DNA from: Marsupella aquatica
Taxonomy: Eukaryota > Plantae > Marchantiophyta
Length of the DNA stretch: 64,000 nucleotides
Assembly: GCA_973895155.1 (NCBI GenBank)
Contig: OZ316891.1
Span: 18,533,987-18,597,986, forward strand
Reading direction: 5' to 3'
Numbering within the stretch: position 1 is the stretch's first letter; every line of letters begins with the position of its first letter. A model generated the notes under the pieces. The model was given only the letters and a program-made list of their open reading frames with translations, had not been told where the DNA came from and ran no database searches. Both the position numbers and the translations under genes were made by a program. Positions 12,204 to 59,121 of this stretch are shown one piece after another.

Positions 12204-15200
12204 CTGCAAGCACATGCATCTTTGACAATTAATACTACAAGAGACCAAACTTCATTTGTAGGACGAATTTCCTATTGTAGCAAACATAATGCATCTACGA
12301 GACTAATGTAAGTTGGAAACAATTACCTTCACAATGCTTGGTGAAGCCTGATGTGGGCTAACAATGCTTCCCTGGAGTCACAATCTGCAATTGCTCATTG
12401 ACATATCATTTGAAAGCTCCACACTCAGTTTTGACTGCCAAGGAATTCGAGACATTTGCAGACGCGATAGAGGCAGACTAATCATTCAACAACGATTCAT
12501 TCATGAAGAACTTACAAATCTCAATGACACTGGTGAGCTACAATGATTTTTTGATTCAGCTGGGCGTGCTGCTGTTGAGCTTGGTTTGATTCCAACAGTG
12601 ATTTGCAATTGAGTAGGGCAGGTGCTGTTGAGCTGTTGTGATTTCTTGTCCCGATTGAGCTAGGCGACCTCGACCACAGCACATTACGCAACGCCTAAAG
12701 GTCGGCAGACTGGACCCTTCCGGTACTTACAATTCATATGGAAATCAGTGCGCTAGGTCACACACATTCTCGCCCTCCTTCGTGACCTTGAATTCCTTCG
12801 TGTCCCCTGCTCTGCTCGATCTGGCCACTACGTATGAATGTGACCTTCAACTGATGCTCGTCTGCACAGAGCACTTAGCTCTCATCTAGTCTCCAACTCT
12901 ACATAGTGCTGCTAGCGATCATAGCTGGTCCCAATAGCGCTGGTCCCGGGGCTGGTCCCAAGTCAGTTGGGCAAGTCATCCAAATGCAGCACAGTATGCA
13001 GCTTCTTATCCTTGAAAGACTTCTCGTGCTTGTTTTAGCCTCCCCTGTGCCGATGTGAACGCTGCTTTGGGCCCATACACATAGAACATAAAATGCTGAA
13101 TGCTTCCAATTTCCTCCCTCTCCATCAAGACTGATTCCGATCATGCAACGATAGTGCTATGTGCTAAGTGCTATGTGCACATTATGTCTAAACCTAGAGA
13201 AATGTGTCGCTGTGGTCGAGGCCTTTGTGTTAACCATGTACTTCTGCCAAAGCATCGATAGGACTACTGAAGCCGTTGTTGAGGAAGGGAAACCGGGATA
13301 TGGACAGACATCCGGATGGACTGACTGAAAACCTCCTGCTCCCGGTCAAACAGCTCTTTACAGGTCACCCTTGGAACATGCAGCCAATATGTGTTATACA
13401 AGCATAACTGCAACTTCGGCCTGTGTCCATCCAAGTTGTCCTTGTCCATCCGTGCATTTTTGCAAAAGTTTGTGTCTATATGGGCTTTAAGTTCTGCACA
13501 CTACAATCACCTGTGCATATATATATATATATATATCAAACTGCAGAAAAACAAAAGGCACCCAATCAGGAGACAAGATCCCAAGGGGGAAGGGCCCAAT
13601 CAAGGGGAGGCAACAAAGAAGCCAAAAAGGCTCAGGGTTTGAACAAAGGTCCACAAACAAAAGCAGCCTCATTAATACCCATCCTATGTAAATAGACATA
13701 AGGAGAAAAAAAGCCTTGTAAAAACTAACTAAAAGCTTGGATGGACTGATAGGTTGTTTATGAAGCCCCCATGTACAAACTAAACTGTTGAGCATAGACG
13801 ACAATCGCAACGATAAGCACATGACACATCCAATGATCAAATAATCGACACAAGAGATACGTGGTTCACCTCCTCGAGGCTACGTCCACGAGAATACACA
13901 AGAGAGCTTTACTGAACTCTAAGCCCGTCGGCTATACCAAGTCTCCACACACTACTACATATTTGCCAATTTTGCGAAGGCGTTTTACAAGAGGAAGAAA
14001 GCTTTGCAAGATTAATCTCATCGCTAAACTTGCGATCCGATACGCATCGCACTTAGCGAATCTACACACATCGCAACACATAATTGCGAAACTTAGACCA
14101 TCACAACATTTTACGACACTTCAGGTATCGCAAAACATTTCCGAAGCAATTACCATTGAACAAGTTAGCGATCTTTACCGCTTCGCAAATTCATTAAGAT
14201 GCGCCGGAAAACTAAATGGTTGCAAATATTTAAGCATCTCAAAATATTTTGCGAGTCTTATTGTCTCGCAAATGAGCGATATTTGTGGAATATATGGCTA
14301 ACTTGCGATAGTAATAGGCTCGCAAATCCTGTGCCTGTCTAGGGTCTCATTTTGTGAATGTTTTGGTTTCGCAACTTTGAGATGGTGGTATCTTCGGAAG
14401 TTTGCGATGAGGGAATGATGGCAATTAGGGAGCAGTTAAGTATCGCAAATGTAGCGATGAGTTTGCGGGTGTAGGGGTTTTGCAAGATGTTTCGCAAAAT
14501 ATTATGAGCGCTTCAAAGAGGTGGAAAAGGAATGGGATTGGGGAGGGAGGGTAAAGGAGGGTGGATACATGTAATTTTTAGGGAGGGACAATGAAAAGGA
14601 GGAGGAAGGGAATGGGGCTAGGAGGGACAAGGAACGGAGGGATCCAAGAGGGAGGATACGGGTTTAGGGGGCACAAGGAAATGAGGGAGGAGGAAGGGTA
14701 TGTAGATATAGTTTTAGGGAGGGTTTGGATTTAGGGAGTGAAAATAAAAAGGAGGGAGTTTAGGGTTTAGAGAGGGACAAGGAAAGGAGGGAGGGTATTG
14801 GTTTAGAGAGGGACAAGGAAATGAGGGAGGTTTAAGGGTATAGGTTTAGGAGGGAGGAGAGAAGCTAGGTTGTATAGGTAAGAGTGGGGGACAGGGGTGG
14901 AAAGTAAGGAAAGTATAGGGTTGAAATAGAAAGCCAGGGGTTGGGACAAGGAGAGGAAGGAGGAAGGAGGGTTTAATAAGAGGGACAGACAATGAAAGAA
15001 AGGAGGAGGGAGGTGGGTACAAGTAATAAGGAGAACAGCTAGGGGGGGATTAGGAAAGCATGGAGGATAGAGGACTACAAGCAACATGAGTTTTCTTTGC
15101 ATAAAGTCTACCAAAAGGTGTGGTGAGTGTGGGGTAGGGATGGGAGATATAGAAAACAACATTTGAAAATGATATACTTACAAAACATAAGTTTATTGAT

Positions 15201-15304
15201 AATTGAGAAGCACATATTTCTCCATTCTACCGAGAAGAGAAATCTTCATATCATCAAATCTAACTATATATCCGTGTAGCTATATATCCACAAACACAGA
15301 CCCC

Positions 15305-18300
15305 TCAAACTTGGTCCTCATCATCTTCAGGTTGGGACACAACTAGAATATCAGGCTTTTCCCCAACGATTGAATGAGACCGTGGCACATATGTGATGAC
15401 AAGTGACCATTCCTCTGGGTTTGGGGGGTATGGAATATAGAAACATTGTTCCACATGACTTGGAAAAGTGAACGGCTCTGATGTTTGCCAATGAGATGGC
15501 TGGAAACTAGTGGCAGACGTCTTCAGTCGTGTAAATCCACACTCATCTTGAACCACAGTAGGATTGTTACCTGCAAGGTTCACTTTGAACCACTTGCACT
15601 TGAAGACATACTCTTCAAACTTTGATTGTGCATCATAAGATATCACTAGAATCTCTTCTACCTTTCCATAATGTGGTACAACATCTCGAATAATATTTGT
15701 GTCATGGCGACTGCTGCGGGAATCTTGAGAGAATTGTCCTTGAACTCCACAATCAAAGGTACGACCCCTCTTCTCATCAAGGGAAGAAATCCTAAAATCC
15801 ATCAAACCATAAGGATATGTTACACAAAAATAGACACAAACATATTCCAATTAATTGAACACACCAAGAATCTGCCTCTTCAATATACGTGCTTGTATTA
15901 CAAATGAATTAAATTAAACCAAGTGATTCAAATCAAAGGTTACTAAGGTAGATGGAGATCACCTAAAATGTCTTCCTTGTGTCCACATTGCTGTCCTTGT
16001 TGTAACCACTCTCAAGGGACCATGAACAATGGTACGAACATCATCTGTGATAGCCGGAAAATGTAATACACTCTCTCCCCTGACCACCATGTCATCCACC
16101 TCAACTAACTTCTCCTTCATATAGTCAAGGTACTTTGGAAAAATCCTTGGTCTTGTGCTGTTACTTTTGGCATCCTCATAGAAATCCCTCCATTCTTCCA
16201 TGATAGTGTTGTTACTCAACATGAATGTGGTCAGTTGTTTCACCTCCACTGGTGTCAACATGCGAGTTTTCCTAGCACCTGTTAAACGATCCTCTTCATC
16301 TTCCCTCTCCTCTACCCAAGTACGGGGAGAGGTACAATCAATTGTGGCCAATATGTTACTACAATAGAACATACTCTCAGCTGCTAAGTATCCTGTAGCC
16401 ATGCTTCCCTCAACCCGTGCACGGTTACGTACATAACCTTTTAACACTGCCATGTATCGTTCTAGCCAATACATCCACCGACAATGCACAGGACCTGCAA
16501 TGGCCACCTCATGAACAAGATGAACAAATAAATGCACTTGACAGTCAAAAAAGGAAGGAGGAAGGGCCTTCTCCAACTTGCATACCACCTCTGCTGCCAA
16601 AACCTCCATCCTAGGGATCTCATCAGTATATATCTCCTTAGAGCATACCCATCTCAATAGTTTTCCCAATGACCAAAGGGCATCTTGCACTTCTTCACTT
16701 GCCAAACCTATTATGGCCACAGGCAATATGTGCTGCAATAACCTATGGTAGTCATGTGTCTTGAGATACCTTGGCCACTTATGATTGTCCTCCATCCCAA
16801 AGGCCTTTCGGAGATTGGCACCATAACCAGTACGAAACCGCATGTCTCCTATGCGATTCTGAAACTCCCTTCTCTGGCCAATAGGAAGCACCCATGGAGC
16901 TGAAGGTCGATGCTCGATCCCTGTGATAGGATCACTTATGACCCACACATCTGGATGCATCTCAAGATCCTCACAAGCCTCCCTGAAGTTAGTGTCTTTC
17001 TCTCCATAGAAAGCCTTTATCAAAGCCTTTCCCACATTTCCCTCAATGTGCATGGGGTCTAATAGATGGCGGATCTTCAACTCACCCCAATAGGGCAAAG
17101 TGGTTAATATACTCCACCTTGTCAAGCCACTACCGTCAAATTGCATGGGATCCTCTGGGTCTGCCACTCTTGCAGCCATGTCTTTCCAGTGTGTAAAAGT
17201 TGTTGGCTCAGGTACATCACGCTCGTCACCAAAGGGCATATCAATAGAGGAAAATAGTAGTGGGTCACGCCTCATCTGATGTCCCATTGGAAGAAACTTT
17301 GTATGCCCAAGATAAACAATCTTGCGAAGATGTGATGAATACTTGGCTACATCACCAAGGCTTGGGCCACAAGTGGAGCAAGCCTTGTAGCCTTGGGTTT
17401 GCAACCCACTCACAAAGCCAAATCCTGGTCATATAAACACACATTATGTTAGGATTAGCACATGGAAATGAGGGGATACCATGCATTAGAATATGATGCA
17501 TTTAAACAACAAAGTTCTTACCTGGGTAGTCATGCATGGTCCACATACAAACCCCTTTGAGTTTGAAAACCCGTGGGGTACCCCCTGTAGTCTTTCGACC
17601 ATCATATGCCCATACTCCTTCCCATAATTTCTGGAGTTCTTGAACTAGTAATGTCAAATAGGTGTCCATGTTCTTCACCTTCTTTGGCCCTGGGATAATC
17701 AAAGATAGCAACAAAAAACCCTTTTTCATGGACAACCATGGTGGAAGGTTGTAATTCATGAGAACCACAGGCCAGACCGATGTAGGTCTCCCCTTCCCTC
17801 CAAGTGAATGAGGGCTAACTCCATCTGATGCCAACCCCAGTCGCACATGCCGAGGGTCACGCTCAAAATCTGGCCATGTTGATTCCACATGTTTATGAGC
17901 AGGAGAGTCAACTGGTAATCGCATGACACCGGGCTCCGAACGATGTTTCTTGTGCCATACCATCAACTCGGCCAAGTCAGAACATCTATACATGTGCAAC
18001 AAGCGAGGAATTATGGGGAACCAACAAACTGCTTTCCTTGGTACCTTCTGGGTTAGCATGTTTGGCTCATACCGTGGCTCATGACACACTGTGCATTCTG
18101 TGATATGGGCGGTATCCCCGTGAAATAACATGCAATCATTCACACAGGCATGAATAATATGGTAATCCATACCAATGGATGAGAGAACCTTCTTTGCATC
18201 CTTCCAGATCCCTGGCAACACATTCTCCGAGGGTAACATCAAGTCATGACAATATTCAAATATGTCTGATAACATAGAATTGCTTGTCTTGTGTTTGGCT

Positions 18301-18677
18301 TGAATGTTCAAGAGCCCCAATATGACAGAAAGACGGCTCAACCGAGCACCCTCAGAAATAGGTGTTCGAGCATGTTCCTCTGCCTCTTTCCATTGTTGTT
18401 GTCCCTCTGGAGTATGTTGTGGCCGTGGGTCATTTGAAGGGCCAACCTCATGACCAATGTGAGGCACATCATCCTCAACATCGGCACCAAACCAATCAAC
18501 CATGAAGTCATCCATGGCTCTATCTTGATCATGCATGACCTGGTCATCAGTCCGAGGTGCGGCTTCCTCATCAGCACCACCTACATCATTACTTGATGAG
18601 GAATCACCCTCTGATGGTTCTCCCTCTTCTGGCATACCCATCTCCCGATATGTTGCTCTCAACCTTCGTGGTAACAT
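15305..18677 (-). CDS. TnpD/Tnp2-type CACTA transposase; predicted exons 18677-17522, 17424-15963, 15791-15305
   Basis: Motifs IHACVNDCMLF, CTVCHEPRY, RLGLASDGVSP, NLPPWL, HDYPG, LDPMHIE, KTHDYHRLLQ, GPVHCRWMYWLERYM, FKCKWF, EPF...QCFY (Transposase_21, DUF4218 and DUF4216 type). GT-AG introns restore the frame. Confidence 0.93.
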
Positions 18678-18909
18678 TTGTTGAGATGGTTGCGCATTCT
18701 ATGCACATTACAACCAAAAAACCTCCTCATGTATATTTGACCAAGTACAACAAATTAAAATAGACTTAACACCATTCATTCAAGACATTAAGAATTAAAG
18801 TAAATGCATGGGCTAAAACCTTATTACTCCAAAATGAGCCCAAAGGCCATATATATAATAGTAAATGGGAAGTCCAAAATAGGTGCAAGAGGATAAAGGA
18901 CATGATTTC

Positions 18910-20076
18910 CTAATCCCACTCATAGTGTGTGAATAACTCATCTCCTGCTCTAATGGTCCTAGTAGCAAGAACTAAGCAATGGTCCTTATGATATGTCGTG
19001 CCATATGGTGCCGGCATTGGACCATCAGTAAAAACCCACTCACAATTGGCCCTACGCTTGGGCCGAGTCCCCACAGTACTATTTATGAAACCAGCAATAT
19101 TCCCATTACGTATGGGATCACCATCTATCACCCGCTGCTCACTATATCTTCTAGTGCTACCATCAAAAGTATCCATCTCTAGAGCATATGTTTTCCACTC
19201 AGGATGTTGTGCAAGGATCATGTTCCAATGTCTTCTCTTGTAGATGGGTCCACCATATGGGAACAAAGTAGGACCCTCTCTACCACGAACACTTGACCCA
19301 CCCTCCTCATCCATGATGATATCCTCACAAGCAAATACTCCATATCCATGTCTCTCTCCAAGTGTGGAAGTTTTCACAATCCAACGTCTACCCCAAACCA
19401 CAATCTCCTCATCAAAATCTGTAAAATAAGGCAAGCCAAGAGTGATAGGTTCCCAATCCTTGATGATAGAGGCACACTTGCCAGTGAATGAACAAACACC
19501 CCACCTACCCTGAACTAGTGTTCTGGATGGGTCATTGGGTGCTCGTGGCCTCCTGTTGGATTGGGGCGTGGACCGGGGTCTTCGTGTCTCAGTGGGCACA
19601 TGAGGGTGTTCCCCTTCTGTCCCATGACTGGTACTAATTCCCAAACCCAAGGCTTGTGAAAGTGCATTGCCTATAGCATCTAAAACTCCTTGTGATGGGA
19701 CATAGGGTGGTGGTGTCACCAATCTACGCATACTGGATCCCTATTCCATGCAAACACCCACAAACAACCAAATGTGTAAACCATATGTGTAAACATTGAT
19801 TCACCTCTAAAAATAACAGTAAAGAACGGCAATCAATTGAAACAAACTTACCATATGGGATGAAGAAGCCCCGGGAGTAAGACCTCTATGACGTCCATAT
19901 CTCTCAATATGTTGAGCACACACATAAGATTTTTGAGAAATTTGGCCCACACATCTGGTGCAGTCACAAAGTCTTCGGGGTGGACCACGAGGACCAGTAA
20001 CCTCGGGCTGAGGAGGAGGGGGTATATCGTCATCGGAGGAGTACTCACTACTGGATAGTTCAGAGGAAGAGGACAT
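18910..20076 (-). CDS. Transposon-borne zinc-finger + SET-domain protein (predicted 351 aa; exons 20076-19852 and 19740-18910)
   Basis: Exon 1 has CDCTRC...HIERYG, resembling the CACTA transposase-associated zinc motif. A phase-0 intron atg|gtaagt...aatag|gga joins it in frame. Exon 2 has SET motifs KTSTLGERHGYGVFACEDI, PYGG, IDG...GNIAGFINST, ANCEW, LATRTIRAGDELFTHY. Confidence 0.88.
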
Positions 20077-20229
20077 ATCCACTGCCACATTACATTGCAT
20101 GTAGGGCATGATTAGGAAAAATTAGGCCATATATAAAGCGATTTTTAAAAAAATGAACTCAAAAAACAATTAGGTTGGTTTATACATGGGGTTTTATTAC
20201 CCTTTTATATTTGTTAGCATGAAACCCAA

Positions 20230-21240
20230 ATTAAGGTGAGTGTCATGCAAGAAGAAACCACATTATAACCTTTGGGAAAATTGTAATACCCTATGTCCTA
20301 AGTGAGGTTAGATTATTACCTGAATGAGACCCGGGCTCAACAGTGCCTATAGGTCACGTGGCTTTTGGAACATTTGCCAAATCTAGAAGTAGGAGGAAAA
20401 TACTGGAAACAAAATGTAAGTTTGGATGGTAATTAGCAGCCATCAAGTTGTGGAATCTTAGACATTTACCCACATATATCATGGCACAACAAAGAAGGGC
20501 AAGCATAAAAATCTGTACTAACAACATTGACTGTATACATGATGTTATACCTTTTAGATGCCCGGGTTCCCACAATGCATATGCATTAGACAAAAGTTGA
20601 GGTAGTAGTGTTGGCCCTGCGTTGTATCATGATTACATGGGTTTTCCCCTCAATTGTTAGCATAAAACCCTAAACCCTAAACCCTTATCCCCCCTCGAGT
20701 GAAAGGTGAGTGTCATGCAATAAAAACCCACCCTAGACCCCTGGGAAAACTCTAAAGGCCTAAGCCCAGAATGAAGTTGGACAATAATTACCTGAATGAG
20801 ATCCGGACTCAATAGTGCCTGTAGGTCGTGTGGCTCATTGAACATGAGCTGAATCTAGAAGCACGAGGAAAATACTGGAAACAAAAAAGTAAGTTTGGAT
20901 AGCCATTAGCTTCTCTCAAGTTGTAGACCCCCAAACATGTGCATATAGATATTCTTGCACAACAAAGAAGGGCAAGGTTTATGAACAATCTCTTTATCAA
21001 ACCCTGCTAACATACATGTTTAAATATACCTTTTAGATGTCCGGGTTCCCACAATGCATATGCATTAGACAAAAGTTGAGGAAGCAGTGATGGTCCTGCA
21101 CTGGATCATGATTACATGGGATTTCCCTCAATTGTTAGCATAAAAACCAAAACCTCATCCCGCTTCAAGTGAAAGGTGAGTGTCATGCAATAAAAACCCA
21201 CCATAGACCCTTGGGAACTCTAAAAGCGTAAGCCAATGAA
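20230..21240. repeat. ~470-bp tandem duplication (just over two copies) between the divergent CACTA-1 genes
   Basis: The anchor aaggtgagtgtcatgcaa recurs at ~20233, ~20703 and ~21173. ccgggttcccacaatgcatatgcattagacaaaagttgagg recurs at ~20562 and ~21041. Confidence 0.85.
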
Positions 21241-21959
21241 GTTAGCAAAAACCTAAATGGTCAATTCCCTTCAACCATCCTATGCTTCTCTCTACCATAA
21301 TTATATGCCACCCCTCTTGGTTACCCTCCTAAGATACCATAAAAGTGACCCAAGATACTATAAAACTGAAACCTCTCTTTCAAACCCTCCTAAGTTGGCC
21401 TAAACCCCAAAACCCAAAACATAAAACCCCTCCTAGCTCTTACCCTCCAATACATATAACCCCAACCTTCATAAATAAAACCCCCCTGCAAACCCAAAAC
21501 ATAAAACCCCTCGTATCTAAGCCAATCTAAGCCCAACCTTCACAAAAGAAACCCTCCCCTAACCAGGCCAAACCCCCTCCTCTTACCCTGCAATATAACT
21601 CCTTCAATTTTCTAACCCCCCCAATCCTTATCTCATCACATCCCACTAAAATGCAACATAATCCTCTACATCTACCCCATTTAATGTTCATAAGCCCCCT
21701 TAGTATCCCTAACAACACATCAAATACGCATGCGAGATGGGGGTTATGGCAAAACCAAATAGCGAAGGCTTTTGCGAATCTTGAAGCTTCGCAAAGATAG
21801 AATTTGTGAAGCTTTTTGCGAAGGCCGATGCATCGCAAACTGCGATGCGAAACGAATCGCAAAGCCCAATATTTTGAATCCTTATGGATTGCCGAGCGCG
21901 GACAAGGCGGATTCAGTTCATTCAGGCCTAAGGAGAGCAACGAGGGCAAGGGCAGAGCG

Positions 21960-24066
21960 ATGGCGAGTGAAGAGGGGACTGGTGGTGATGGAGGAGCTTC
22001 TGGCAGCAGCGGAGGCAACCGAGGGGGGGGGATCGATTGAAGGCGATTGTGGATGAGCATTTTTCGGTTGCACAGTTGAGTCAAATTGATTTCACCAGTC
22101 CAGCAGGGCTGGCATCATTGAGTGCCCTTCTGGGCCAAGCCTTGCAAGCAGGTCTCACTGCAGGGCAAGCAGCAGTGGAGGAGGATGCAAGGAAGGCAGC
22201 AGAGCAGGCGGCTGCTGAGAGGAAGCGAAAGAGGGACGAGAGAGCTCAGGCTGGAGTGCTCTCGCCTCAAGCATTGGAAAAGAAGAGGAGGAAAGATGAG
22301 AGAGACCTGATCAGGAAACAGAGGGAGGAGCAAAGAAAGAAGGAGGCAACAAGGAGGAAGCTGCCTCTGATTACTTTAGAGGATGAGGGGATTCCCACCG
22401 AGCTTGCTTACAATGGGGCCAAGAGCACAATCAGGCACATTGTATCCACAAATTTTGCAAGAGGAGTCAAGTGGGGCACTCGCTCAAAGGCAGAGCAGAA
22501 GCGAGTCATCAATCAGGTGAAAGATGCATTTCGAAATGGAGGAGAGATGGATTCACAGTGGCTTGCTGACAAAATTTCAAACTCCATGTCACAAGCTAGA
22601 TACCATGATAGAATGAAGACCAGGTCTCACCTTAGAGATTTGGTGGAGTATAGGAATTTGCAGAGGCCGCTGCAATTCTCAGAAGATATCTGGCAGGCCT
22701 TCTACCAGACAGAGGTGAAGTTGAAAGCAGCCAGGCTCCTCAATGATTTCACAGAGAAGCTGGCAAAGGCTCGAAGGGCAAAGGAGGCCGGGAAGTCTGA
22801 CCGGGACCTGAAGGTGATGGAGCAGAAGGTAGCCCAGCTCCAGCAGGTTGTAGCAGAAGTAGGCGATCCACCCAACAAGTTCCTGAAGGCAGCTGAGCGA
22901 GTCCGAGACAAGCCCAACATCACCCACAGGCTGGGTCAAGGTGGCCTCCCCGGCCTCAAAGCAGCATTCGTGAGTGCACCTCCCTCTCCTCCCTTGACTT
23001 CTTGCTACTCCAATTCCTATTCCAACACACCTGCAATGAGCCAACTCTTTCTTGCATTTCCACCAAGTAGTTACAATTAGACTTGTTGTGTCAGATTAGG
23101 TCACGTACAGTTGCTTCCCTCTCGGGTTTTTTCCATGACAGAGTTTGCGATACATTTGCGATGCGGGTAGCTTCGCAAATCCTTCGCAAACCTTATTATG
23201 CCCTTTTTTTGCTTACGTTTGCGAAGGCGTTGCAAAGACGTTCGCATCGCAACCAGCTTCGCAAACGTAATTGTCCTTATGATTGCGAAGCTGGCGCCTT
23301 CGCAAAATTTCAAAAATTTGAATTTTTAAATTTTCCGATCGTTTAAGTGTTCTTTGAGGGTCTTCCCCATATATGCCACCCTCCATAACCCCAAAACCTT
23401 GATGCACCACCCCACCAGCCCCAACAAACCCCCTAATTTTTAGAAGCCATGTGAATCGGGTTATGGGTTGGTGTTAACCCAATTGTGCTGGTTTTGTTTT
23501 GGCTTAGTACAAGAGGTACAAGAGGAAGATTACGGCGGCTGAGATGGAGGTGGGCCAGAAACATGGGAAGGAGCATCTCTTTCAGCAAGTTGATGAATTA
23601 TTGGTGAGAATTTTTAGGTTATTACATTCATTGCAATTTTGAATGAATATCTCTTTTGTTCACACTTGTAAAGAATATGAGACTAACAGACACCCTGGTT
23701 TGCTAATGGAAGCAGGGAGGGGAGGATGGTGACTCCCATACCGAGGGTGGCACCGATAGTAGTGATGAGGATGTGGAGGGGGCAGGGGAGGGGAGCACAG
23801 CTCCTGCTACTCAAGCCAGGCCAACTAGCACTGGAGACCAGTCATTTGCATCAGCACGTTCCAGTGGTGCTGGGGGTGGTAGCGCGGCAAGCCAGGGCGG
23901 TGGAGGTGGGGATGAGGATGAGGATGAGGATGAGGGTGACCCCGAGGGTGACCAAGAGGAGGAGGAAGTCCAGGTTGCACCCCCCCAAGAGCACACAAGG
24001 GCAAGGAGAAGGCCAAGGGGAAGAAGGCAAGGAGGGGCAGGAACACTCCTTTCTAGCTCGATGTAG
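21960..24066 (+). pseudogene. CACTA-1 accessory (TnpA-like) gene, three predicted exons, frameshift in a poly-G run
   Basis: ATG at 21960 (MASEEG...), with a frame break in the G-run at ~22021-22031. Helical/charged ORF to a donor at ~22970, then exons ~23507-23604 and ~23715-24066. HRLGQGGLPG parallels FWGQGGWGG in the equivalent CACTA-2 gene. Confidence 0.6.
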
Positions 24067-27000
24067 ACAAGTTGTAGCTAGAGCACTTACATCGAGTTCA
24101 CATGTATAGCGATCAGCATGCATGGCCATGGCACTTTACCTAAGGGTTTTTACCCTTCCATTTTGTAACTTTTGTACTTTTTCAGTAATGCCATTTTAAT
24201 TGCGGCAGACTGGGTCAACATCACTTTCCTCCCTCCTTCAAAACCCATGAATGGTCTCCCTCACCCTCACCCTAACCCAAATACACAAAAACCCATGAAA
24301 TATACATTTTGCGAAGCTTTTGAGAACCAACCCCCATCTCAAAGACCCACGGTGAACGTATCGCAACCATTCCGAGGAGAAACGCATCGCAACACTTGCG
24401 ATGTTGTCTAAATCACAACCCTAGCGAAGACTTACTCTCCACACGTTTGCGAGTTAAATGCCTTCGCAACAAAGCGGTCATCCGCTTCTCACAAGCTTAC
24501 GAGTTTGTTTGCATCGCAAGTTATAGAGAAATTTAACATCGGAAATTGCGATGTAAATGTTATCGCAACGCGAGCGATTCATTTGTTCTCGCAAAATAAT
24601 GAAATTTGTCGTTTCTCAATATTTGCAAGGACAGTGCCGTCGCAACATTGCGGAGATGTTGCGACGTATTTAGAATCGCAAGTTGCGAAGTAGTTGCGAA
24701 GGGCCGTTTGCAAAGAATTTGAGATGGGAAGTAGCGAAGACGTTGCGATGCGAGTAAGTTCGCAAATTGGGTATTTCGGATTTTGTTTCCTTTGTATGAT
24801 GCGAAGGGTGGTGGTTCGCAAAAGAGGTGCATAGTGTTGTAGTGACAGTGTAAGCTCTCCTCATCTCTCAAGTGGCTCCGTAACAATGAGACTAAGTTCC
24901 ACTTATCCAAGCAAACACTGTTTGGCATATATATGCATCCTAGTTAACCTAACCACATCTCCGACTACGGTTAGCCTAACTACGATTACATGTCGTAACC
25001 CTAGACCTTGAGTAAATACCTAACATAAACTTGGATGGACTTGACTCAAACACACATATATATATATATGCTTGGATACTATGTTTTACACTTGTGTACA
25101 ACAATACCCTGTCAGATCATCACTTCTGTCCAACTATCCAAAAGTACCATGTCAAAGCACCATATATCTCTGTCCATTTTGTCCAAGGGTACCATGTAAC
25201 ATCATTGATTGCAAGCCTCTTTGTATTCTCTTAATATTCTATTCCCTCAAGCTAGTCACTTTAACCATGTTTTTAGAATTCAATAAAAAACATAAAATAT
25301 GTAAGGTATGTTTAGATATTTGTAGGCCTTTTCTGGCCTTTGTTAATGGTAAAATAAACTTATGTGTAGACTAAGCTCTTCACAATTTACTCATAGTGCC
25401 TCAAGTAGTTTGTTCAATGAGCAAAAGCAAAATTAACTCAAATTTTTTCAAGAATATTTTTTTGTTTATAGTAGGTAGCAAAACTCCCACAAAAGGGGGA
25501 AACAAGCACCACAATGACCCGTGAACCAATCTGACAATTCCACTAGCAAACAGGGGACAAATCTTGATTTTCATAGAGAATTGCTCTTGAGATGGAATAC
25601 TATTTTCCATATAGTGTTAAGGAGGGGTTTGACTTATTTTGTGGCAGCAAAGCTACCTCAGATTTTAATCTAAGAGGGTATTGAACATTGAGAAATCCTA
25701 TTTTTCAGATAGCGTTGCTCTTGTTACAATAAGCGCTTTGAGTACTTTGCCATCGCGGAGGTCTCAAAAATTTCAAATACAATACTAGATGTACACCTTT
25801 ATTTCATTTCATGCATGTTTTCAGTTCACTTTTAGGTGCACAGATTCTCCTAATGTGATTAAAATGTAGGTAAACAGCTAATGATAACATTATTATCTAA
25901 ATTTTCCCATCATTAGGTGTAAGATGCTTAGTTTATGTGTCACAGTCCATGGGGATGTTGAGAGACAACCTCCCAGTCCATCCGGGCTTTGGTTTCTGTA
26001 GAAAATTAAAGTATTCCATGTTATTTCTTTCATCTTAATTTCCCCCTCCCCAGTTTTTTATCTATAACCTCAGTGTCAGTTATGCTCTCAAGTAGATCAA
26101 CATCTAGGGGCTTCAATCTAGAACGTAGGCCCTGGGACTAGCTTTGATTGAATGTGCTTTTTAATTGATAACCTAAATAGAGATGAGGAAAAAGGAAAAA
26201 ACCTTGTCATAGAAAGAAATCTACCATTTCACTAACTCTGGAGATTCTTTTGTCCAAAGTTGAAGAATGAAATTTCCAAAACATTCATTTCAAAAATCCA
26301 AAAACATGATCTGAAATTTCCAAAACCCAAAATTGAAGTTTGCAAAAGCATCCTTTAAATTTCCAAAACCTAGTCCATTGGATGAATTACAAATTCAAAG
26401 GCAATGAAAAAAGTACTCCTTCAAATGAATGACTGAAATTATTCTTTATAATAAATGGGGCACTAATGGTGGTGCCGTACATATATTTTGATATCCTTTC
26501 ATGGGACTTCATTGTTGGGTTTTTTGCTAACTACAACATCGTCTTCCGCTATTTAAGTGACTACAAAGTTGACTAGACAACTACACATATTTGACTAGAC
26601 AGCTACACTAATCATATCAAGAATATCTGTGAACTAACAAATGAAGGATAGCTTCGTCATAGACACCTATTTCTCCTCCTTCCTAAACTCTGTCCATCTT
26701 CCAAAACCTTGTCACAGACACCCATTTCTCCTCCTTCCTAAACTCTGTCCATCTTCCAAAACCCCTGCCAAAGCCTCCCCTCTCCCCTCTACGTTCCGCC
26801 ATAGTCCAATTGTGTCCGCCTTCAAGCCAAAACGACTCCTCTTCTCCTCTCCTCTGCTATTGGGCCAAACCGAAAGGAATGATTCCAGGGTTGCGCATTG
26901 GCCTTTACCCCTCCCTCCAAATGGGGCTAATTCTAATCTATATGAAGCAAATTCACTAAATTATATCCGTAATCTGAAGTACTAAGTCCTGCCTACTCTT

Positions 27001-27997: not shown

Positions 27998-28104
27998 TAA
28001 ATATCAATATTGTAAAGTCCATGCAAGAGCGTAACATCAATTACAACGCATTGCAGCGTATGGAAATCTAACAATAACCTATTCCACACGAGAATCACGT
28101 AGAT

Positions 28105-44356: not shown

Positions 44357-47300
44357 TCACTCTTGGAGAATGTTTTTTAGGACAATTATTTGTACCTCAT
44401 TTCTTTCAAAAGTTCTACTAAATAGGGGTACTGTAATAGGATATTTAGGATTTCAAAGAGGAATTAGACCTCATTTCTTCCATAACTGCCCTAATTTTAG
44501 AATTAGACTTCATTTTTTCTTAATTGAAGACGATTGAGGGTCCTGACATGGGTTATGTCTTGGTCTTGAGGAATTGGACTTCAATTGTAACACAATTTAT
44601 CAGTTGGGTGGTTCCTTAATGTGATATTACATGGATTGGGGATTTGTACCCTATTGGAATTTGTACCCTAATGGAATTTGTACACTAGTGGACCTTTTAC
44701 CCTGTTGGAATTTGTACCTTGTTGGACTTTTCTTCTCTCTTAGAGTGAAGCATCGAATAATAGTGGGTCCTTTCCTTCTTCTTGTGGGACTTTTTGTCAT
44801 AAATGCATATGATTGTGATAATTCCGTTATGTTTGGGAGATGTTTAGACGTAAGCTGATGCTCTACACGAGGCTCGCATAGCCATCGAACCTCCTTGTGT
44901 TTCCTTCCACTACCTGTATGCGTTAATAATTCTACACGAGCCTCGTGTTGAGGGATACTACCGTGCATGTTTTATTCTGGTTAACCAGGTCTTTTCCTGC
45001 CGGTGAATAATTCCCATCACAACTACATTTTCACATTTCGGGACCAGGTGTAACCTAACCCAAGAAGACTTTCGTTCCATTAAAGTCGGACTATATGTCG
45101 TTAATCTCCGGACTGTTGTCGGATGTCGTCCGGAGATTCGACGGGATCAGATAACGTCGATTGTCATGACGTTAAGTTTACGTCCTTTAAGACACGGTAA
45201 GTTACCTCGTATCATACGTTGTACCTCTCATTACGTCTTCCTAGACGAGGTAACTTACCTGTTTCCTAAAGACGTAAATTAGAACGATGTATAGGACAAC
45301 GTCCATAATTTTAGGCATTTGGAATGACGTATCTGCAGATACGTCGTCATAGAATACCATACGTACATTGGGGAAAACGGCGTTAATTCCACATATCAGC
45401 GTTGGACAAACTCAACTATAGGTGAGAGGCTCATTATAGCCAGCATTCCCGAGTGAAGACATCAAAGTGTAGAGAAGTTGAACCGTGGGAGGCAAAGTGT
45501 TCAGCTATGGTGCGGAAGTTCTTTGCAAATGTGCATTGTTGTTTCCTCCCACTTGGTGAGGAGGAGAAGATGGTTTGAGGGTTCTTTTGCCGTGGAGGGC
45601 TTGTTGACAAGCTATGTACCTCACAGGCTTGTTGACAAGCTATGTACCTCACAGACCGATTTCTTGATTGCAAATACGTGGAAATAGGTTGTGGAGCACT
45701 TCAGTGACTATGCTGGCTTGATCGAGCATTTCGCTGAAACCTTGCATTTCATCTCTACTCGGTGGGTAGAGTGCTCCATTCTTGTCAACAAGCAGCTGGA
45801 CCCAGGAGAGTTCTTGTTGCATCCAAGCAGTGATCGTGGTTTGGAAGATTCGCCCGAGGATGATGATGGTGAGGCCTACCCTCCCACCTTGTCTAAATGT
45901 GAGCTGTCACCCATTGAACTTCAGATTGCTATGTTTGATTACAAGGAAAGTTGTGCAGCCAAGGTGGAGGCTTAGAGGCTACAGGCCAGTGAAGCTGTTG
46001 TCCGGAAGAATTGGAATGCCAGCCAAAGGCGTGCTTCATACAACAAGAGGATTGAAAGTGGATGAGGAGTACTACTGGTCTGGAGAAGGGACTCCTTAAT
46101 CAACATCAGTTTGGAGGGAGGTTGTAGAGGGATGACCATGACTCATGTAAGCTACATTTGCAGTAGAAAGGATGGTAGAGCTATAGTGTATCTCTATTTG
46201 GTCTATGTGCAACAATAAACACATCCATGAATGTTATTTGTTGCAAAAATTGTGTGGTTTGAATGTTGTATCTTTTTCCTATGATTAACGTCAAAAATCA
46301 TTTGTTACGTTGAATGAAACATCGTATGTAAATTGCTAACGTCGTTATACTCGTGGTAATATAATTTTGTCTCTACATACATCGTTAAGTACGTCATTTT
46401 TACCTTGTTACAAAGTTTAGGGCGACGTTAAAGAGAGTTATAACGTTGGATAATGGTTCGGTACACGACGTTGAATCGTGTTACGTCAAGGAGGCATAGC
46501 TATAAACGACGTAAAAAATTGTGCATCGACGTAAAATTCCAAGGATGACATTAATGACAAGTATCCCTTGTAGCAGAAGGCCGAGGGATCATGTGCATAA
46601 ATGTATGGTTGTTACTTGTTTCTTTACCAAGTTATTAACACAAGCCCATCCCACTCTCCAAATACATAGATGCCTAGGCCATGAAATATGTGTGTTTATA
46701 TGCGAGGAGTGACAATAGTCAATACAAATGGCGATAGTGAGTCTATCATGTCAATCCTCATCGTCTGCAAGAGCTGATGGCATGAAGCCCTTCCTACGGC
46801 GTGGAAAGATGGGAATCACAATGGACCATCCTCCCATGGTCTGCATCGGAACCATAATGCATTGATCCACTTGGCTAGGAAAAACTATAGTGTCACTACA
46901 CTCAGTCCCGCTTGGTGCAACACGGGTCGTGTCCACACGATAAAATCCACACTCATCCTTCACCATGGTAGCTCTTGCTGGAGGTGACATGATGGACTTG
47001 TGCCACCTCACCTCTAACACTGTGGTGGTAAACGAGCCAAAATTAACATCCAAAATATCCAAGACTATGCCACAATAAGGAACCTCAACATCACCTACAT
47101 CGGTCACCATTTATACTCCAGAGTTACAAGTACTCTTCTTCATATGGTCCGTCCTCCAAGTCCGAAAGTGGTGCCCTGACTCATACATGTGAGTATGAGT
47201 CATAGCCCACATCGAAGGCCCCCTAATGATGTTTTGTACATCAATGGGAATGAATGTAGGGCCATGCACTGCCAGGAGCCCCTCCATGCACTCCAAGGCC

Positions 47301-48423
47301 CATATGCGAAATGATGCATGAACACGCTCTCGTGCTGCCCCTATCCGCTACTGCTCCACCCATGCCCTGCAAGTACTGGGTCACATATACATTAGTGACC
47401 ACCCTAAACCCTAAACCTTGAATGTACATTTCAAATCTAAGTAGGACTCAACATGAAGGATTACGTCCCTACCTATACAACTCTCTCCAATCTGACATCT
47501 CCGTGCGGTTCTCCAACACATAATTGTGGATCTGTCGGCAAAAAATGTCATCATGTAATGATCTCTTCTTTGACGCGCCCATCACTCGCAACCCACCGTT
47601 GTCATCATCTTGTGCCTCTTCCCAAGCTGTGGGAGCCTATGTGTCCAAACTTCTTATCACCCCGCTTGAGTAGAACAGGCACTCCGACATGATATACCCT
47701 GTTGCCATACTTCCCTCTGGTCGAGCGGGTTGGTTCACCCAAGACTTTAGCACTTTCATGAACCGCTCTACCCAATACATCCACCGCGCATGCACTGGAC
47801 CAGCAATGGCTACCTCGTCCACCAAATGACATAGCAAATGCAACTGCACGTCAAAAATACATGGGGGAAACACCTTCTCCATATTGCACATAACACGGGC
47901 AGACCGTTCCCTCATCTCGGGAATCTCACTCTCCTTTATTTCCTTTGCGCATACCCACCTGTATGGGGTACTCAAAATTTTGTCAAATTATTAGTATGAT
48001 AAACATATGCAATGATCATAGCATAAATATATGCCAACAAGACTATGCTCACCTGAAAATGGAGCACAACTCATACACTGTATGTCAGAGTAGGCGTCGC
48101 TCTCTAGAATCATCGCAACAACGCAAGACAACAGGTAACACATGCTGAATCAACTTGTGATAATCATGAGACTTCAAGCCTATTGGGGGTATGTGGTCAT
48201 CCCTTGTAGTGCACCCACGGAAGCCGGCTCCGTAATGGCTAGGGAACTTCATTTCACATATCATCCCATTCATCTCCTTCAATATCTGTCTTGGCAAAAC
48301 CCAAGGAGCATGTGGCTTCTCCCCATCTCGAGTTATCCAACAACTCTTCACCACTCCAACCTGCTTTGCATCCTCTCGGACCCCACGAGTATCATTCATG
48401 CCATAAATGTGCTTCACCAGGTT

Positions 48424-49461
48424 CCCTGGGCCCTCACTCTTACTATATCAAGTGAACCCCCCTGAGAACAGATACCCCCCGTGTACCCCTTCTTAATATT
48501 TTTGTTCACAAAAAAAATCCCTTGTTAATTTAAAAATATTAACTTTTCCTATTAAATTTTATCCTTTTGTAAATTATAATAGAGTTTTTCAAGGAATTGA
48601 AAACACCCTTGAATTTTTAGAATTACAAATATCATACTGAAATAGTTAAAACTTTATCTTTTCATAGGGGACTTGTATGTTATGCTCGATGTTCAAGGTA
48701 CATATTATATATAGATAAACAAAATTAGGACGAGAGAAAATTATAGTTCTTCCTATAGTTTACACATAGACCTGCAATTTTGTCTTAGTGTTCGCAAAAG
48801 TGCCTCTGAACTTCTAGTTTCATTAGTACTATATATATATGTATAATCCAAGAATAATACTTCAAAGTCTGAACCAACTATAACAAACATTGTTTGAGCG
48901 CTCGAGACCCCTCCCTCAATACACAAACACATCTGGCCTCATACATGGCTGTTTGATTCAAGGGAATTCAAAAGTAATCTTGTCCATCCATGTGGGATTG
49001 ATCCATGGATCCCCATCAATCCCAGTTTCCCAACCAAGTTGGGTCCAAAGATCCTGGCCCAAAATTTACTCAACTCCCCACTTAACTTCTAAACGTGCAG
49101 GTAAACATGTCTACCTTAGTTAGCCCATTTGTTCCACTATAAGGGGACCAACGAAACCAAACCTGCCTTAAGACGATAATAATTAAATATATGATTTACT
49201 ATATGGACACGTGTGCAAATGAAGTGATGACATGTGTGTCAACCATATAGTGACGCGTGTACTTGGCATTTTGGGTACCCTTGCATAAGATTTATGTGAC
49301 ATGTATTTGATTCTTGCCTTATTACTAGTATTGTGGTGAATGTATATAGAGGGATGTTGCCTACTTTAAAAACTGTTATAAAAATTAGTTTGCATTACAT
49401 TAAAAATACCCTTGCGTTGTTCGCACGTCCTCCTTGTATTAGTAACACTAAGGGCCCAGGG
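48424..49461. mobile_element. Non-autonomous TIR element (1038 bp), related to the 36482 MITE
   Basis: 11-bp TIR CCCTGGGCCCT. 8-bp TSD ACCAGGTT at 48416-48423 and 49462-49469. Removal restores AKNLVKHIYG. Confidence 0.93.
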
Positions 49462-50402
49462 ACCAGGTTCTTGGCAACATTTACTTCAATATGCATGGGG
49501 TCCAACAACCATCGTATCTGGAGGATCTGCAAAATGAGTGGAGAATCAGGTTTTGTTAGTAAGAAATTCATAAAGAGAATAAGTCTACAAGTCACTAACT
49601 TAAAAGAAGGTAAATTTATTTTACTTACCCTCCAATATGGCAAGTCCCACAAAGCTAAGCGCCTATTGACACCACAGTGCTTGGGTTGAAGTAACTTTGC
49701 CTCCACTTTCTCTGCCATCTGAATTTGGGCCTCAGCTGAGGGCCCATTGGGACATGGCCTAAACTCAGTCTCAGCCCAATGTGTGGTATTATGTTGCAAG
49801 ATATCATCCATATATTGGTAATCGAACCCTACTGCCCTCATATGTGGTTTGGTGCAAGTGGTTAGAATATCTCCCATGCAACTCGGGACCACATGAAGAG
49901 CAAGCAGAATAACCAGCCACCTTCAACCCGGATATTGTGGCCATACCTGTGAATGAATGGAAAAAAATTGTCAGGCCATAAACATTGGCCCATGCAATAG
50001 GACCCTGCACAATGCATGTCAAAAATTTTCAGTGACTGAGCATTACCTGGACCATCAGTGGTGCAGTGGGTGATCATCGCCCTCATCTGAAATGTCCTCC
50101 CATTATCCGGTGCACGAGTGACATCTATGGTCACTGCCCCAAACTCCCATAGCTTTTGCAATTCTTCATAAGCTGGAGCCAAACAAATATCCGGATTCTT
50201 ACAGGCTTGAGGACCAGGAATGATAGCGAGGAGAAGAACATGACCTTTCTTCATCGCCAACCATGGAGGGATATTCTGATTTATCAAGAGAACTGGTCAT
50301 ATGGACTTAGGCTTGCGTCGTTGCTTGTATGGGTTTACCCCATCTATTGCCAACCCCAATCGAACATTCCGCGGCTCTAGAGAAAAATCAGGCCAAGTGG
50401 TG

Positions 50403-53400
50403 TGTGGTGCTTCCCATAGCTCCCCAAACCCAAGAAACCCCCCCGCACAAGCCGATTCCCGCAGGTTTCGTCCTCGGCGAGGCCGTTTCCGTGGCTTAGC
50501 GGCATGGGACGCTGCTAATCTTCTCTACTACTATTAACATTTTACACACATATACTGGACAGATCCTTCATCGGGTCATGAGATACGTAGCCGGCCTATT
50601 CTAGGCCTTCCCTTGTATTCCTCTCCTGGTCTTCCATTAGGTATGTTTGGATTCCGCCGCTGGAATATATGATCCCCAATTGGCTTGGTTAAGTCGCTAA
50701 GACCTCTCTCAGCTCGACACATCCAACTCTCACTCCCTTGCTACTTCCCTTCATTGATGTGGGCACTCTTCACACAAGTTAATGCGACACACAAATAGCA
50801 AAATAACTCCTGACTGAGTTATACCATGCACTTGCCATACAAACAGTATATCTCATACACAAGCTCTGCGAACTAAACCGTGAGGCCAACTCTATTCAGT
50901 TCTTAGGCATGAGGAAACATGAATATACACAAGGGTCATTGTATAACTAACCGAGAGCTTCTCTTACTACTTGATCCTAGCCCTGCTGGTGCAACTAAAA
51001 ACTTGCTAAAGAAGAGGCCCTGAACTCCCCACAGCCCAGGTACTTATCCTGGTTGTGGATCCGCCTGATTCCTTGCAGCGTAAGCCTAATCTACTTATCT
51101 GTAATCTACCTAACTGTAATCTACCTATGTACAGCGAGGCAGGAGCACAAGTGTTGCCCTTACTTGTGGATCCGCAATCCCACTAATCTAAGTGTCAGGG
51201 CCGTCGCCTGGTCCTGATCCTTAGTCTAAACTTGGAGATCAGTGCCCGCCCTGCCCACTCACGCCTCCTACCTCCACGTCCGCCCTCCCTAAAAGGGACG
51301 GGCGCCCTTGCACCGTCACGACACCGGTGGCGGATCCTCAATGGACGCCCCCAACGCTTCCCCTGTAGCCACTACCGTCGGTCCGTCCTCTAACAGATTA
51401 CCTGCCCCGGACCAAGTCAACTCTTCATCGGCTTGACTGGGTCCACCCTCGGCTTCGGCCTCAGCATCGGCCACAACCTCCCTGGCATGTTCTAGTGGAG
51501 GATCTGGTACCTCGGCTTCACTACTGGTTGTCCCGGCCTCGGCCTTGCCATCCCCACTTCCTAGGACTGGTGGATCCACCGCCGTGTCGATGCTGGAGGT
51601 TGGTGCCGGGTTTATCTTCTTGGTCAAATGGCTGGAGAAGCCGTATAACTCCCAGACCCAGAAGGTTTCTGCTTCTTCTTCTTCCCTATTTCGACAGCTG
51701 GTCCCTTCCCCTTGCTACCTACCTCCGGCACCGGGGCGTGTGTCTCTGCTTGTCTTTCGGCCAGTACCCCTCCTGGTAACGGAGTTCCCACAATTGGAGT
51801 TGGACCAGATGAAGCTAAGCACTTAAATACTGTGGCCTGTTTCTTCAGCCGCTCCGTTTGGTTGTCGGCCCGCCGCTGTAAGTTCTCCATCTTCCTGGTG
51901 GTTTCCTCCAACTCCTCTTGGGCTTCCTCCAGGTCCTTCCGTCCCTCCTACAGCTCCTTTCTGGCTTCTTCCAATTCCAATTTTAAGGTAGCCCTCTCCT
52001 CCAGGGTTGCTCTTAGCTCCTTGTCGAACTCTGCTACGACCTCAGACTCCATCTTATTCATCTTGGCATAAGTCTGGTCGAGCTGGTCGTCCTTTTCACG
52101 CAGGTCGGCCTTGAAGTTGGCCGTCAGGGACGCAAGCTCCTACTACAATGCAATAATCCCTTGATAGGATTTCCCTAACTCGGCTTCCTTCTGCTCAAGG
52201 GCTCCGCGGATATCTTCGAGCTCTCCTTTCAATGCCCTCTCCCTTCTCTGAGTCTCCGCCATGGCCCGGTTGTTGGCGGTTAAGTGGGCCTCCTCTGCGT
52301 CCCTCAACTCCTGCTTCCACTTTTCCCTATCCTTGACCGCGCTGGCCAACTCTCCTTGGGTCCGAGTCAGTTTATCCTCGATAATTTGATTGCCAGACTG
52401 AGCGGCATCCAATTGTCCTTGCATGATGTTTAGCTCATGCCGCTTAATCCGCAGCTCATCTTGGGCTTTCTTGGCCGCCTACAGGACTTCCACCTCACCT
52501 TCCTTCTCCCTAAGCCACCGGATGACCTCATCCTTTTTGCTTGTCTCCAAAGCCACCGCCTCTTCTAATCGGTGCTTCTCCAACCTCTCCCTCTAGAAGA
52601 AAGGTCCCTGCTCCAACTCCTCCCCAAAGATGCTAAGCGCCAGGTCCCCACACATCTCCCCGTACTCCATGGCTCTATCTTTAGCATAGGTGGAGTAAGT
52701 AGAAGTCATCGGCAACAATCACCTCGGCCTCTGTTCCCAATCCACCTTGCGGATTTCTTCTACGGTGGCAAGAGGGTTGCTTCTTTTTTCGGCAAGCCGC
52801 CTGATGTCCTCCGGCCAATCTCCTCCTGGTAAATCTTTCTCCCTAGCCAGGGCTGCTTTCTCTTCCTCCCTAAGTCGCTCCTGAAACTCTTGTGCCGTCT
52901 GCTTTATGCCGTCAAAGCTCGGGGGAGCAACCTCTGGTGGGGGAGACTCGGGGCTACTCTGCTGGGTGGGGTCCCCTCAAACTACTCTTGGAAGTGTGGG
53001 GATAAATTGGCCACAGGTCCTTACTCCTGGAACATGATGATCCGACCCATAGCCGAAGTTATCATTGCTGTAGTCCTCCACCGCCTCCTCCATTGCTTGG
53101 ACTCCCGGCTTCCCCCTCTGTTCCCCTGGTCCTGCCGTGAAAACGGCCTCACAGACCACGGGCTCTTGTTCCTCCTCTAGGCACCAGGCTATCCTTTCCC
53201 TCTGCTCTCCGTGGGAAGGAGCCTTAGGCTGCTCTGCCTCCGATTTGGGGCTTGAGGCTCTCACATACATTCGCACTCCCGGCTTGTGTTCCGGCCTCCT
53301 TCTCTCCTTGGCTCCGGTAAAGGGGTTTTCCCTCCTGAGTCGGCTTAGGCCAACCTCTGGGGCAGTGTCCTATACCGGTGCCGTTGCCGTTGCTGGTGCC

Positions 53401-58678: not shown

Positions 58679-59121
58679 GTCCTACAACCAATAAAACCAT
58701 CTCTCATTTGAGAAAAACCTATACAAAACCCCTCACAAAAACCCATCCTTAAAACCCTACAATTACAACCTAATATTAGTTTTAACGTCGTTTTAAAAAA
58801 AAAGCCTAACATTTAACGTCCCGCTTAAACCCCGTTCGATGTCGGTTACATCTTACAAAACGACGTTCCTAAACTTAACGTCATTTAGGACAAGGTGCTC
58901 ACAGGAAACATCATTTGGAAGAGACGTAAACGGGACGTTAAAGAGACGTTAAAATGACGTGAATTGCAAGAAACGGCGAGCCCGCGAGGTTAAGCGTTTC
59001 CCCGGTCATTTCCTTCAGAAAACATCAGGATCGTGTTCGAATGCGAGTCACATTTGACATTCCCCAATGCACCTCTAATCCTCACCTCTCTTGGTCTCCT
59101 CTACCTCATAGAATCGCCCGC

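Follow-up and report, generated by a model that had tools for sequence, protein, structure and literature searches.

A predicted SET-domain protein encoded inside a CACTA transposon of Marsupella aquatica leads one to ask whether the domain is an integral, selected part of the element, whether it is likely to be an active enzyme and on what it might then act. The window (i.e., the whole stretch of 64,000 nucleotides that was analyzed) was accordingly studied together with its relatives in protein databases, sequencing runs and metagenomes. The original prediction had described an intact two-exon gene, joining a zinc finger to a SET domain, within a delimited CACTA element.

Organization of the SET-bearing CACTA element

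The CACTA (En/Spm) element, hereinafter element 1, occupies 13950..24844 on the minus strand (10,895 bp) and lies inside a high-copy repeat. It has 10-bp terminal inverted repeats (TIRs) with one mismatch, its termini (CACTACTACA and CACTACAACA) begin with CACTA, and it is flanked on both sides by the target-site duplication ACA (13947-13949 and 24845-24847); TIRs starting with CACTA and a 3-bp duplication are the definition of CACTA/EnSpm used here (PMC4158355). The joint of a site without the element (13946 to 24845) was recovered in all four sequencing runs checked and fixes the ends of element 1 exactly. Given that the surrounding repeat is itself present in many copies, its other copies are the probable source of these joints. 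The predicted delimitation by TIRs and a target-site duplication is hence confirmed. As the reference for single-copy depth we used the region of a single-exon, apparently single-copy F-box gene of the window (2084-4003, minus strand): in one run (X1) a 7,575-nt contig matches 1500-4752 without differences at a depth of 10.7. In the same run, four contigs of element 1 (557-797 nt, 2-5 differences each) have depths of 506-607, which suggests about 50 near-identical copies, depth being a rough guide and not a copy number; by the same rough guide, the SET exon has a depth similar to the rest of the element in the expanded family. From these near-identical copies, together with the stop-free transposase exons described below, we infer that the family is young and recently active. 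In a run from another organism (X6), the coding parts of 15171-19727, including SET, have a summed depth of ~5,000-39,000 and the non-coding parts are near 10, possibly reflecting a very high-copy sister family.

The SET gene, on the minus strand, has an open frame of 351 aa, for which the predicted splicing joins exon 1 (20076-19852; 75 aa, 225 nt, phase 0, donor GTAAGT) to exon 2 (19740-18910; 276 aa) across a GT-AG intron of 111 nt (19851-19741; 111-118 nt in relatives). Exon 1 encodes a Ser/acidic/Pro leader followed by a Transpos_assoc-like motif, C37xC39xxC42...H56xxxxG61, and exon 2, hereinafter the SET exon, encodes a variable linker, a folded pre-SET segment and the SET core with the residues G207-x-G209, Y237, N295-S296, N307, E343 and Y348. 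The stop codon falls 3 residues past this last tyrosine, leaving no post-SET region, and the last SET codon is 214 nt from the transposase on the same strand. We thus recovered the intact gene with all its quoted motifs, its position directly upstream of the transposase and its lack of post-SET cysteines as originally predicted. An alternative in-frame acceptor for the SET exon at 19807 was dropped, as stops remain in frame. Upstream of exon 1 lies a tandem duplication (20233..21243) with a period of ~470 bp and 78% identity.

The transposase is encoded on the minus strand by exons 2 (17522..18698; Transposase_21, with LASDG and MHDYP), 3 (15963..17424; DUF4218, with CxxC, HxxxH and WLERYM) and 4 (15305..15791; DUF4216, ending with a stop), its frame being immediately preceded by a conserved phase 0 AG acceptor (18699..18700, minus strand; TGCATAG). 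The Pfam families PF02992, PF13960 and PF13952 each score above the cut-off, identifying it as plant Tnp2 type. CSTC and HLFVH, corresponding to the C(2)C and H(3-4)H motifs, also lie within the frame, together with three putative acidic (DDE) residues. When the SET exon is skipped, exon 1 and the three transposase exons together form a stop-free, in-frame protein of 1116 aa; CACTA transposases average 1,163 aa (PMC4158355).

Exon 1 therefore deserves attention as a potential common exon. Its donor GT is kept in 17/17 loci, the SET acceptor in 16/17 and the transposase acceptor CATAG in 20/23 (of the three that deviate, one is shifted by 3 nt and two are mutated). All three splice sites are phase 0 both in element 1 and in element 2, a distant element of the same window described below, and DNA similarity to relatives begins at the transposase acceptor, upstream of a methionine at codon 8 of the transposase exon. 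At the protein level, exon 1 of element 1 has no Pfam match at E<=10 and no match in a PDB search; that of element 2 matches Transpos_assoc (PF13963, E 1.4e-4, 22.4 bits against a cut-off of 27.7), and further weak matches to this domain occur in proteins of the family (P0094, E 0.031; P0053, E 0.059). The exon 1 products of the two elements agree at 38% over 34 aa, with C, C, C, H and G in common. Judged from these sequence features, the zinc finger, which the original prediction had treated as belonging to the SET gene itself, is most likely the transposase's own N-terminal (transposase-associated) domain, and exon 1 is very probably common to the SET and transposase transcripts by means of alternative 3' splice sites. 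It appears rather unlikely that SET and transposase are instead separate head-to-tail genes, the transposase being translated from its own methionine after a 5'-UTR intron and exon 1 serving SET only. Such an arrangement would fit the conservation of the codon-8 methionine in the close family and the database models, where none of the 15 proteins with exon 1 is joined directly to a transposase and exon 1 is included in 0 of 918 candidate long transposase gene models (weak evidence); likewise, Arabidopsis Spm families alternate between spliced and split genes (PMC13547354). However, it would leave unexplained the phase 0 of the transposase acceptor in two distant elements, the similarity extending 5' of the methionine to that acceptor and the resemblance of exon 1 to a transposase-associated domain. 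Weak GTAAT donor-like sites occur in the spacer between the SET exon and the transposase.

Divergent from these genes, on the plus strand, is ORF3 (21960..24066), likely a TnpA/ORF2-like accessory gene. It matches no Pfam family at E<=10, has no meaningful match among PDB sequences and reaches only 0.83-0.84 in the Atlas; its resemblance to TnpA lies only in the motif HRLGQGG. ORF3 is conserved between elements 1 and 2 (28% over 96 aa). In the element 1 copy, a run of nine Gs (22023-22031) places the start codon out of frame with the long ORF, reflecting either a mutation or a read error in an otherwise intact young copy, and later exons probably lie near 23508-23607 and 23700-24066. Element 1 further contains 47 TCGCAA motifs, as against 16 in the remaining window, and 46 of them fall within four clusters: two subterminal, with 14 at the 3' end (13972..14492) and 18 at the 5' end (24309..24816), and two internal, with five in the space separating the divergent genes, shortly upstream of ORF3 (21772..21857), and nine in a putative ORF3 intron (23145..23300). 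Relatives show the same kind of clustering. In Arabidopsis, clusters of CCVTCGCAAA motifs are bound by TnpA-Spm1, which activates the cognate copies and removes DNA methylation at their ends only (bioRxiv 10.64898/2026.08.24.746577); the exact CCVTCGCAAA motif has no occurrence in element 1.

Relatives of the element and selection on the SET exon

Element 2 (45018..61890, minus strand) is a second, decayed SET-CACTA of a distant family, absent from the original prediction, with intact TIRs (CACAACTACA) and an ATG duplication. Its layout and gene order are identical to those of element 1, with the exon 1 donor at 58153, the SET exon at 58022-57212 and the transposase acceptor before 57097, all on the minus strand, and a divergent ORF3 near 59632-60342 on the plus strand. 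The SET exon is 36.5% identical to that of element 1 and has two in-frame stops, the transposase is disrupted by insertions, and the subterminal motifs differ (AACGTC). One small insertion with 34-nt inverted ends (56347-56983) lies inside this transposase.

Other mobile-element-like features also populate the window. A run of ORFs on the minus strand (27140-31252) combines in one frame a Ulp1 protease (PF02902, E 1e-31) and a weak match to N6/N4 DNA methylases (PF01555, E 0.001, under the cut-off), flanked by ORFs that we take to encode an FCP1-type phosphatase and a ParB-like domain; it is perhaps another cargo-carrying element. Accessory genes of red-algal Plavaka elements also include PF01555 and ParB (bioRxiv 10.1101/2025.02.11.637652). 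A Ty3/gypsy-type LTR retrotransposon (32381-42642, minus strand) encodes protease, RT, RNase H and integrase and contains GGTACCC-rich repeats at 35.0-35.7 and 40.3-40.8 kb. Cys-rich ORFs with CCTKNCC and CDLC (62402-63396, plus strand), matching no Pfam family above the cut-off, perhaps represent another DNA transposase.

Searches with exon 2 recovered 46 proteins among 742 candidates, the named ones coming from Sphagnum, Calypogeia and Riccia and one cluster comprising 360 members; a phmmer search over 1.84 billion representative proteins gave 91 matches. Accessory domains of host SET classes were found in none of the 45 of these 91 that were scanned with Pfam, where the only other notable matches were a weak Transpos_assoc (P0094) and the Transposase_21 of a Riccia gene model (P0097) in which a distant SET is joined to this domain. 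Across 45 metagenome loci, the transposase comes right after SET in 24, exon 1 is present in 18 and ORF3 lies upstream in 10. Six loci (L024, L033, L038, L039, L042 and L043) have >700 bp downstream without a transposase, and the SET is truncated in all six; one further locus (L045) has no match to any part. A complete second TIR with its duplication was seen in no metagenome locus, and the same left end as in element 1, CACTACAACA, in five of the 14 checked.

These loci are mostly close copies of one family (pS<0.1 in 272/325 pairs) and hence not independent. With loci covering less than 70% of a region excluded, comparison of the window with the loci gives a median dN/dS of 0.21 across 30 loci in the SET core and of 0.49 across 29 in the linker; the exon 1 motif has 0.08 (18 loci), ORF3 0.17 (10) and the transposase 0.10-0.18 (12 and 5 loci). 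Four pairs among three families give SET dN/dS values of 0.24-0.29 (bootstrap upper bounds 0.39-0.46), and close copies a value of 0.95 among themselves, which is the usual post-insertion decay. Judging by the between-family values, active elements benefit from the SET exon, which is under purifying selection rather than a passenger, and the comparison as a whole points to SET as a permanent component of a CACTA family instead of something recently taken from a host. Neutral evolution and a recent origin from a host gene, against which the original prediction had asked to be checked, are thus contradicted by this dN/dS and by the same layout at 36% identity. That the exon is a functionless, recently captured piece of a host gene of the Pack-CACTA kind is accordingly hardly credible. 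CACTA elements do pick up host sequence (PMC13317346) and the close copies do decay neutrally, but the between-family constraint, the identical position of SET in elements only 36% alike and the missing host-SET accessory domains in the Pfam-scanned matches all speak against it; indeed, selection and deep conservation already refute it, barring a single-copy host orthologue nested in the family.

Between the window and one locus (L002), synonymous divergence is 0.56 in the SET exon as against 0.85-1.29 in the transposase exons, which could reflect constraint at the RNA level or cassette exchange between families. In a SET tree (62 rows, quick method), the window is placed together with Sphagnum and Calypogeia proteins in a starred set of 10 rows, apart from Riccia; the moss and liverwort SET proteins are ~80% identical with unsaturated dS. 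Transfer from one bryophyte to another is hinted at by this pattern, which old paralogous families account for as well.

The SET fold and predicted enzymatic activity

The Pfam SET profile (PF00856) matches exon 2 with 27.1 bits (cut-off 22.4, E 5.7e-6). An AlphaFold model of the SET protein from an alignment of 65 sequences (pLDDT 90.9, pTM 0.86), which replaced an earlier one from 43 close sequences (pLDDT 69.5), retrieved 308 PDB chains at E<=0.001 in a Foldseek search, with LegAS4 at the top (7e-8). In VIA comparisons there is a near tie by Z-score between COMPASS/Set1 (12.6; rmsd 2.5, 124 aligned), SET7/9 and SET8 (12.1) and LegAS4 (11.3). The top Atlas match is likewise a SET cluster (0.97), and a profile search of PDB sequences placed LegAS4 first (E 5e-5); phmmer with the single SET sequence against PDB sequences gave 0 matches at E<=10. 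Profile and model agree that the exon 2 protein adopts a SET fold, so that the HMM and structure searches proposed in the original prediction as its check came out in its favor. Nearly all the top structural neighbors of the model are histone lysine methyltransferases, and SET8, EZH2, G9a and ATXR5 are among its neighbors; nevertheless, on the model no host SET class stands clear as the closest, and a substrate is not assignable from structure. Matches at E<=0.001 further include 21 viral SET proteins, but at 14-23% identity.

SET enzymes use the GxG motif and the Asn of NHS for binding SAM and the Tyr of ELxF/YDY for catalysis (PMC6054832). Across the 65 family members, the corresponding positions are strongly conserved (G207 60/63, G209 61/63, Y/F237 65/65, N295 58/65, N307 64/64, E343 59/60, Y348 54/58), and GxG, N295 and Y348 are retained in the family alignment even at 25-40% identity. 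The His of NHS is replaced by Ser in 61 of the 65. This residue touches the adenine of SAM and is Cys in PRDM9 (PMC6054832), and LegAS4, an H3K14 methyltransferase (PMC10653858), has INFS, with Phe at the His position, in the profile alignment. Because both enzymes depart from NHS, and LegAS4 methylates H3K14 all the same, the NST of element 1 is by analogy no strong objection to activity, contrary to the original prediction, for which it was the main doubt. The stronger doubt comes from the absent post-SET cap: the segment forming the cofactor pocket/peptide groove is missing, and most family members also stop within ~15 residues. The post-SET part helps build the cofactor pocket of SET enzymes (PMC6054832), and the isolated SET domain of LegAS4 is a poor SAM binder (PMC10653858). 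A partner or dimer may thus be needed to complete the predicted enzyme.

LegAS4/RomA of Legionella (PDB 8swi, 5czy) resembles the SET protein in having GN..YINxS for NHS and no post-SET cysteines in the aligned stretch. However, the two share only ~26-30% identity, and LegAS4 is in a near tie with Set1, SET7/9, SET8 and EZH2 by VIA Z. Moreover, the activity of LegAS4 requires a post-SET segment and ankyrin repeats (PMC10653858), both of which the SET protein lacks, and the H3K14 substrate of LegAS4 cannot be carried over.

Possible roles of the SET protein and comparison with known systems

The element itself bears the marks of past DNA methylation. The interior of element 1 is depleted in CpG/CHG, its coding part showing a CpG observed/expected ratio of 0.29-0.35 as against 0.56 in the window, and at related loci C-to-T changes at CG/CHG reach 0.10-0.16 per site versus 0.006-0.009 for A/T transitions (~14-26x). 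From this depletion and C-to-T excess, the copies appear to have carried methylation over a large part of their past. Interior methylation counts against simple anti-silencing, and does not exclude an action at the ends or at some stages, as with TnpA.

Taking these observations together, we read element 1 as a young bryophyte CACTA in which one transcript would give rise to either a zinc-domain and transposase or a zinc-domain and SET protein, the latter a predicted methyltransferase marking the chromatin of its own copies; we hold this reading, taken whole, to be about evenly balanced between right and wrong. In mechanistic terms, alternative 3' splice sites would yield the two proteins, the ORF3 protein would bind the TCGCAA clusters of the element, and the common zinc domain would recruit the transposase or the SET protein to the element or the transposition complex, possibly via the ORF3 protein. 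A partner would supply the absent post-SET cap, and the SET protein would then methylate a histone lysine in nearby chromatin, thereby helping the expression or movement of its own copies. A more elaborate form, in which this is an old land-plant CACTA lineage whose zinc domain docks the enzyme on a TnpA-like protein, whose partner completes the active site and whose mark is confined to its own copies, is possible and on the whole doubtful.

The enzyme could be active on something other than histones, with the SET isoform methylating the transposase, the ORF3 protein or a host silencing protein and thereby tuning transposition, which we think unlikely. The retained catalytic residues, a common N-terminal domain that would put SET in the transposition complex, the absence of a specifically closest host SET class and the methylation-depleted interior, which a histone anti-silencer might have prevented, would all suit such a target. 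Nevertheless, the top structural neighbors are almost exclusively histone lysine methyltransferases, and published transposon SET genes have been interpreted as chromatin modifiers, there too by inference (PMC12730594; bioRxiv 10.1101/2025.02.11.637652). It is quite unlikely that the fold is dead or weak and acts as a histone-tail reader, decoy or scaffold, or that the isoform merely diverts splicing from the transposase and competes with it via the common domain: a pure scaffold would not need GxG, N295 and Y348, which are kept to 25-40% identity, and LegAS4 is active without the His. The missing post-SET cap and the Ser in place of His would nonetheless accord with such a protein, as would the lower synonymous divergence of the SET exon if it means constraint on the RNA. 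Finally, the enzyme might place a repressive mark on the element's copies or on rival elements, sparing the host. The presence of SET8, EZH2, G9a and ATXR5 among the structural neighbors and the methylation footprint on the copies lend this self-restraint some plausibility, yet it strikes us as very unlikely in view of the recent expansion to ~50 near-identical copies, in which the depth of the SET exon is similar (a rough guide), and of the activating role of the published transposon accessory factors VANC and TnpA (PMC12730594; bioRxiv 10.64898/2026.08.24.746577).

If the more elaborate form were true, element 1 would be the first transposon shown to aim its own encoded chromatin writer in this way. 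Exon sharing, if true, would assign a function to the transposase-associated domain, about which little is understood, and would amount to a novel means of directing a chromatin enzyme. With an intact copy from a recent amplification, in plants for which good transformation models exist, it can be tested directly whether a transposon writes histone marks to its own advantage. Furthermore, Sphagnum and liverwort annotations list hundreds of "SET domain-containing protein" entries that are probably derived from transposons and that would make host chromatin genes seem more numerous than they are.

The original prediction knew of no SET-encoding CACTA family, and the novelty this implied does not survive comparison with the literature: SET genes occur on HarbingerS and oomycete MuDR families (PMC12730594), on Phytophthora Helentrons (PMC4067079) and, as PAG2, on red-algal Plavaka elements of the EnSpm/CACTA superfamily (bioRxiv 10.1101/2025.02.11.637652). 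Our literature search found no paper describing a canonical CACTA of land plants with a SET exon, though Repbase Reports or bioRxiv supplements may contain one; SET as a whole word is absent from the available text of a 2026 gene-capture review (PMC13317346), and the accessible parts of the literature on these SET-carrying groups gave no activity assay of a transposon SET gene. HarbingerS, MuDR and Helentrons resemble element 1 in being DNA transposons with a SET gene of their own, but they belong to other superfamilies and non-plant hosts with no exon sharing with the transposase described in the available text, and the Helentron SET is an intronless, Clr4-like ORF (PMC4067079). The Plavaka PAG2 is likewise a fixed SET gene in the EnSpm/CACTA superfamily and a proposed chromatin modulator; however, it is a separate accessory gene of 17-19 kb elements, in which a DNA methylase (PF01555) is fused to SET (bioRxiv 10.1101/2025.02.11.637652). 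Element 1, in contrast, has a canonical plant transposase and a SET without methylase, its exon lying between transposase exons 1 and 2, and PF01555, which the Plavaka PAG cassette has fused to SET alongside PAG1 and PAG3, is absent from its ORFs and from 59 family proteins.

Maize En/Spm and Arabidopsis ATENSPM3 produce TnpA and TnpD from one alternatively spliced gene (bioRxiv 10.64898/2026.08.24.746577; PMC13547354). Spm is like element 1 in its CACTA ends, 3-bp duplication, clustered subterminal TCGCAA core and a single gene that likely gives a transposase and an accessory isoform, but in element 1 the alternative product has a predicted SET fold and is not TnpA, the TnpA-like candidate ORF3 being a separate divergent gene. 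Further, the Spm TnpA is a sequence-specific anti-silencer that recruits host DNA demethylases and does not write a mark (bioRxiv 10.64898/2026.08.24.746577). The functional model for a transposon factor acting on its own chromatin is VANC of VANDAL (MuDR), whose effect has been shown by experiment and which, unlike the element 1 protein, is not a SET enzyme (PMC12730594; bioRxiv 10.1101/2025.02.11.637652; bioRxiv 10.64898/2026.08.24.746577).
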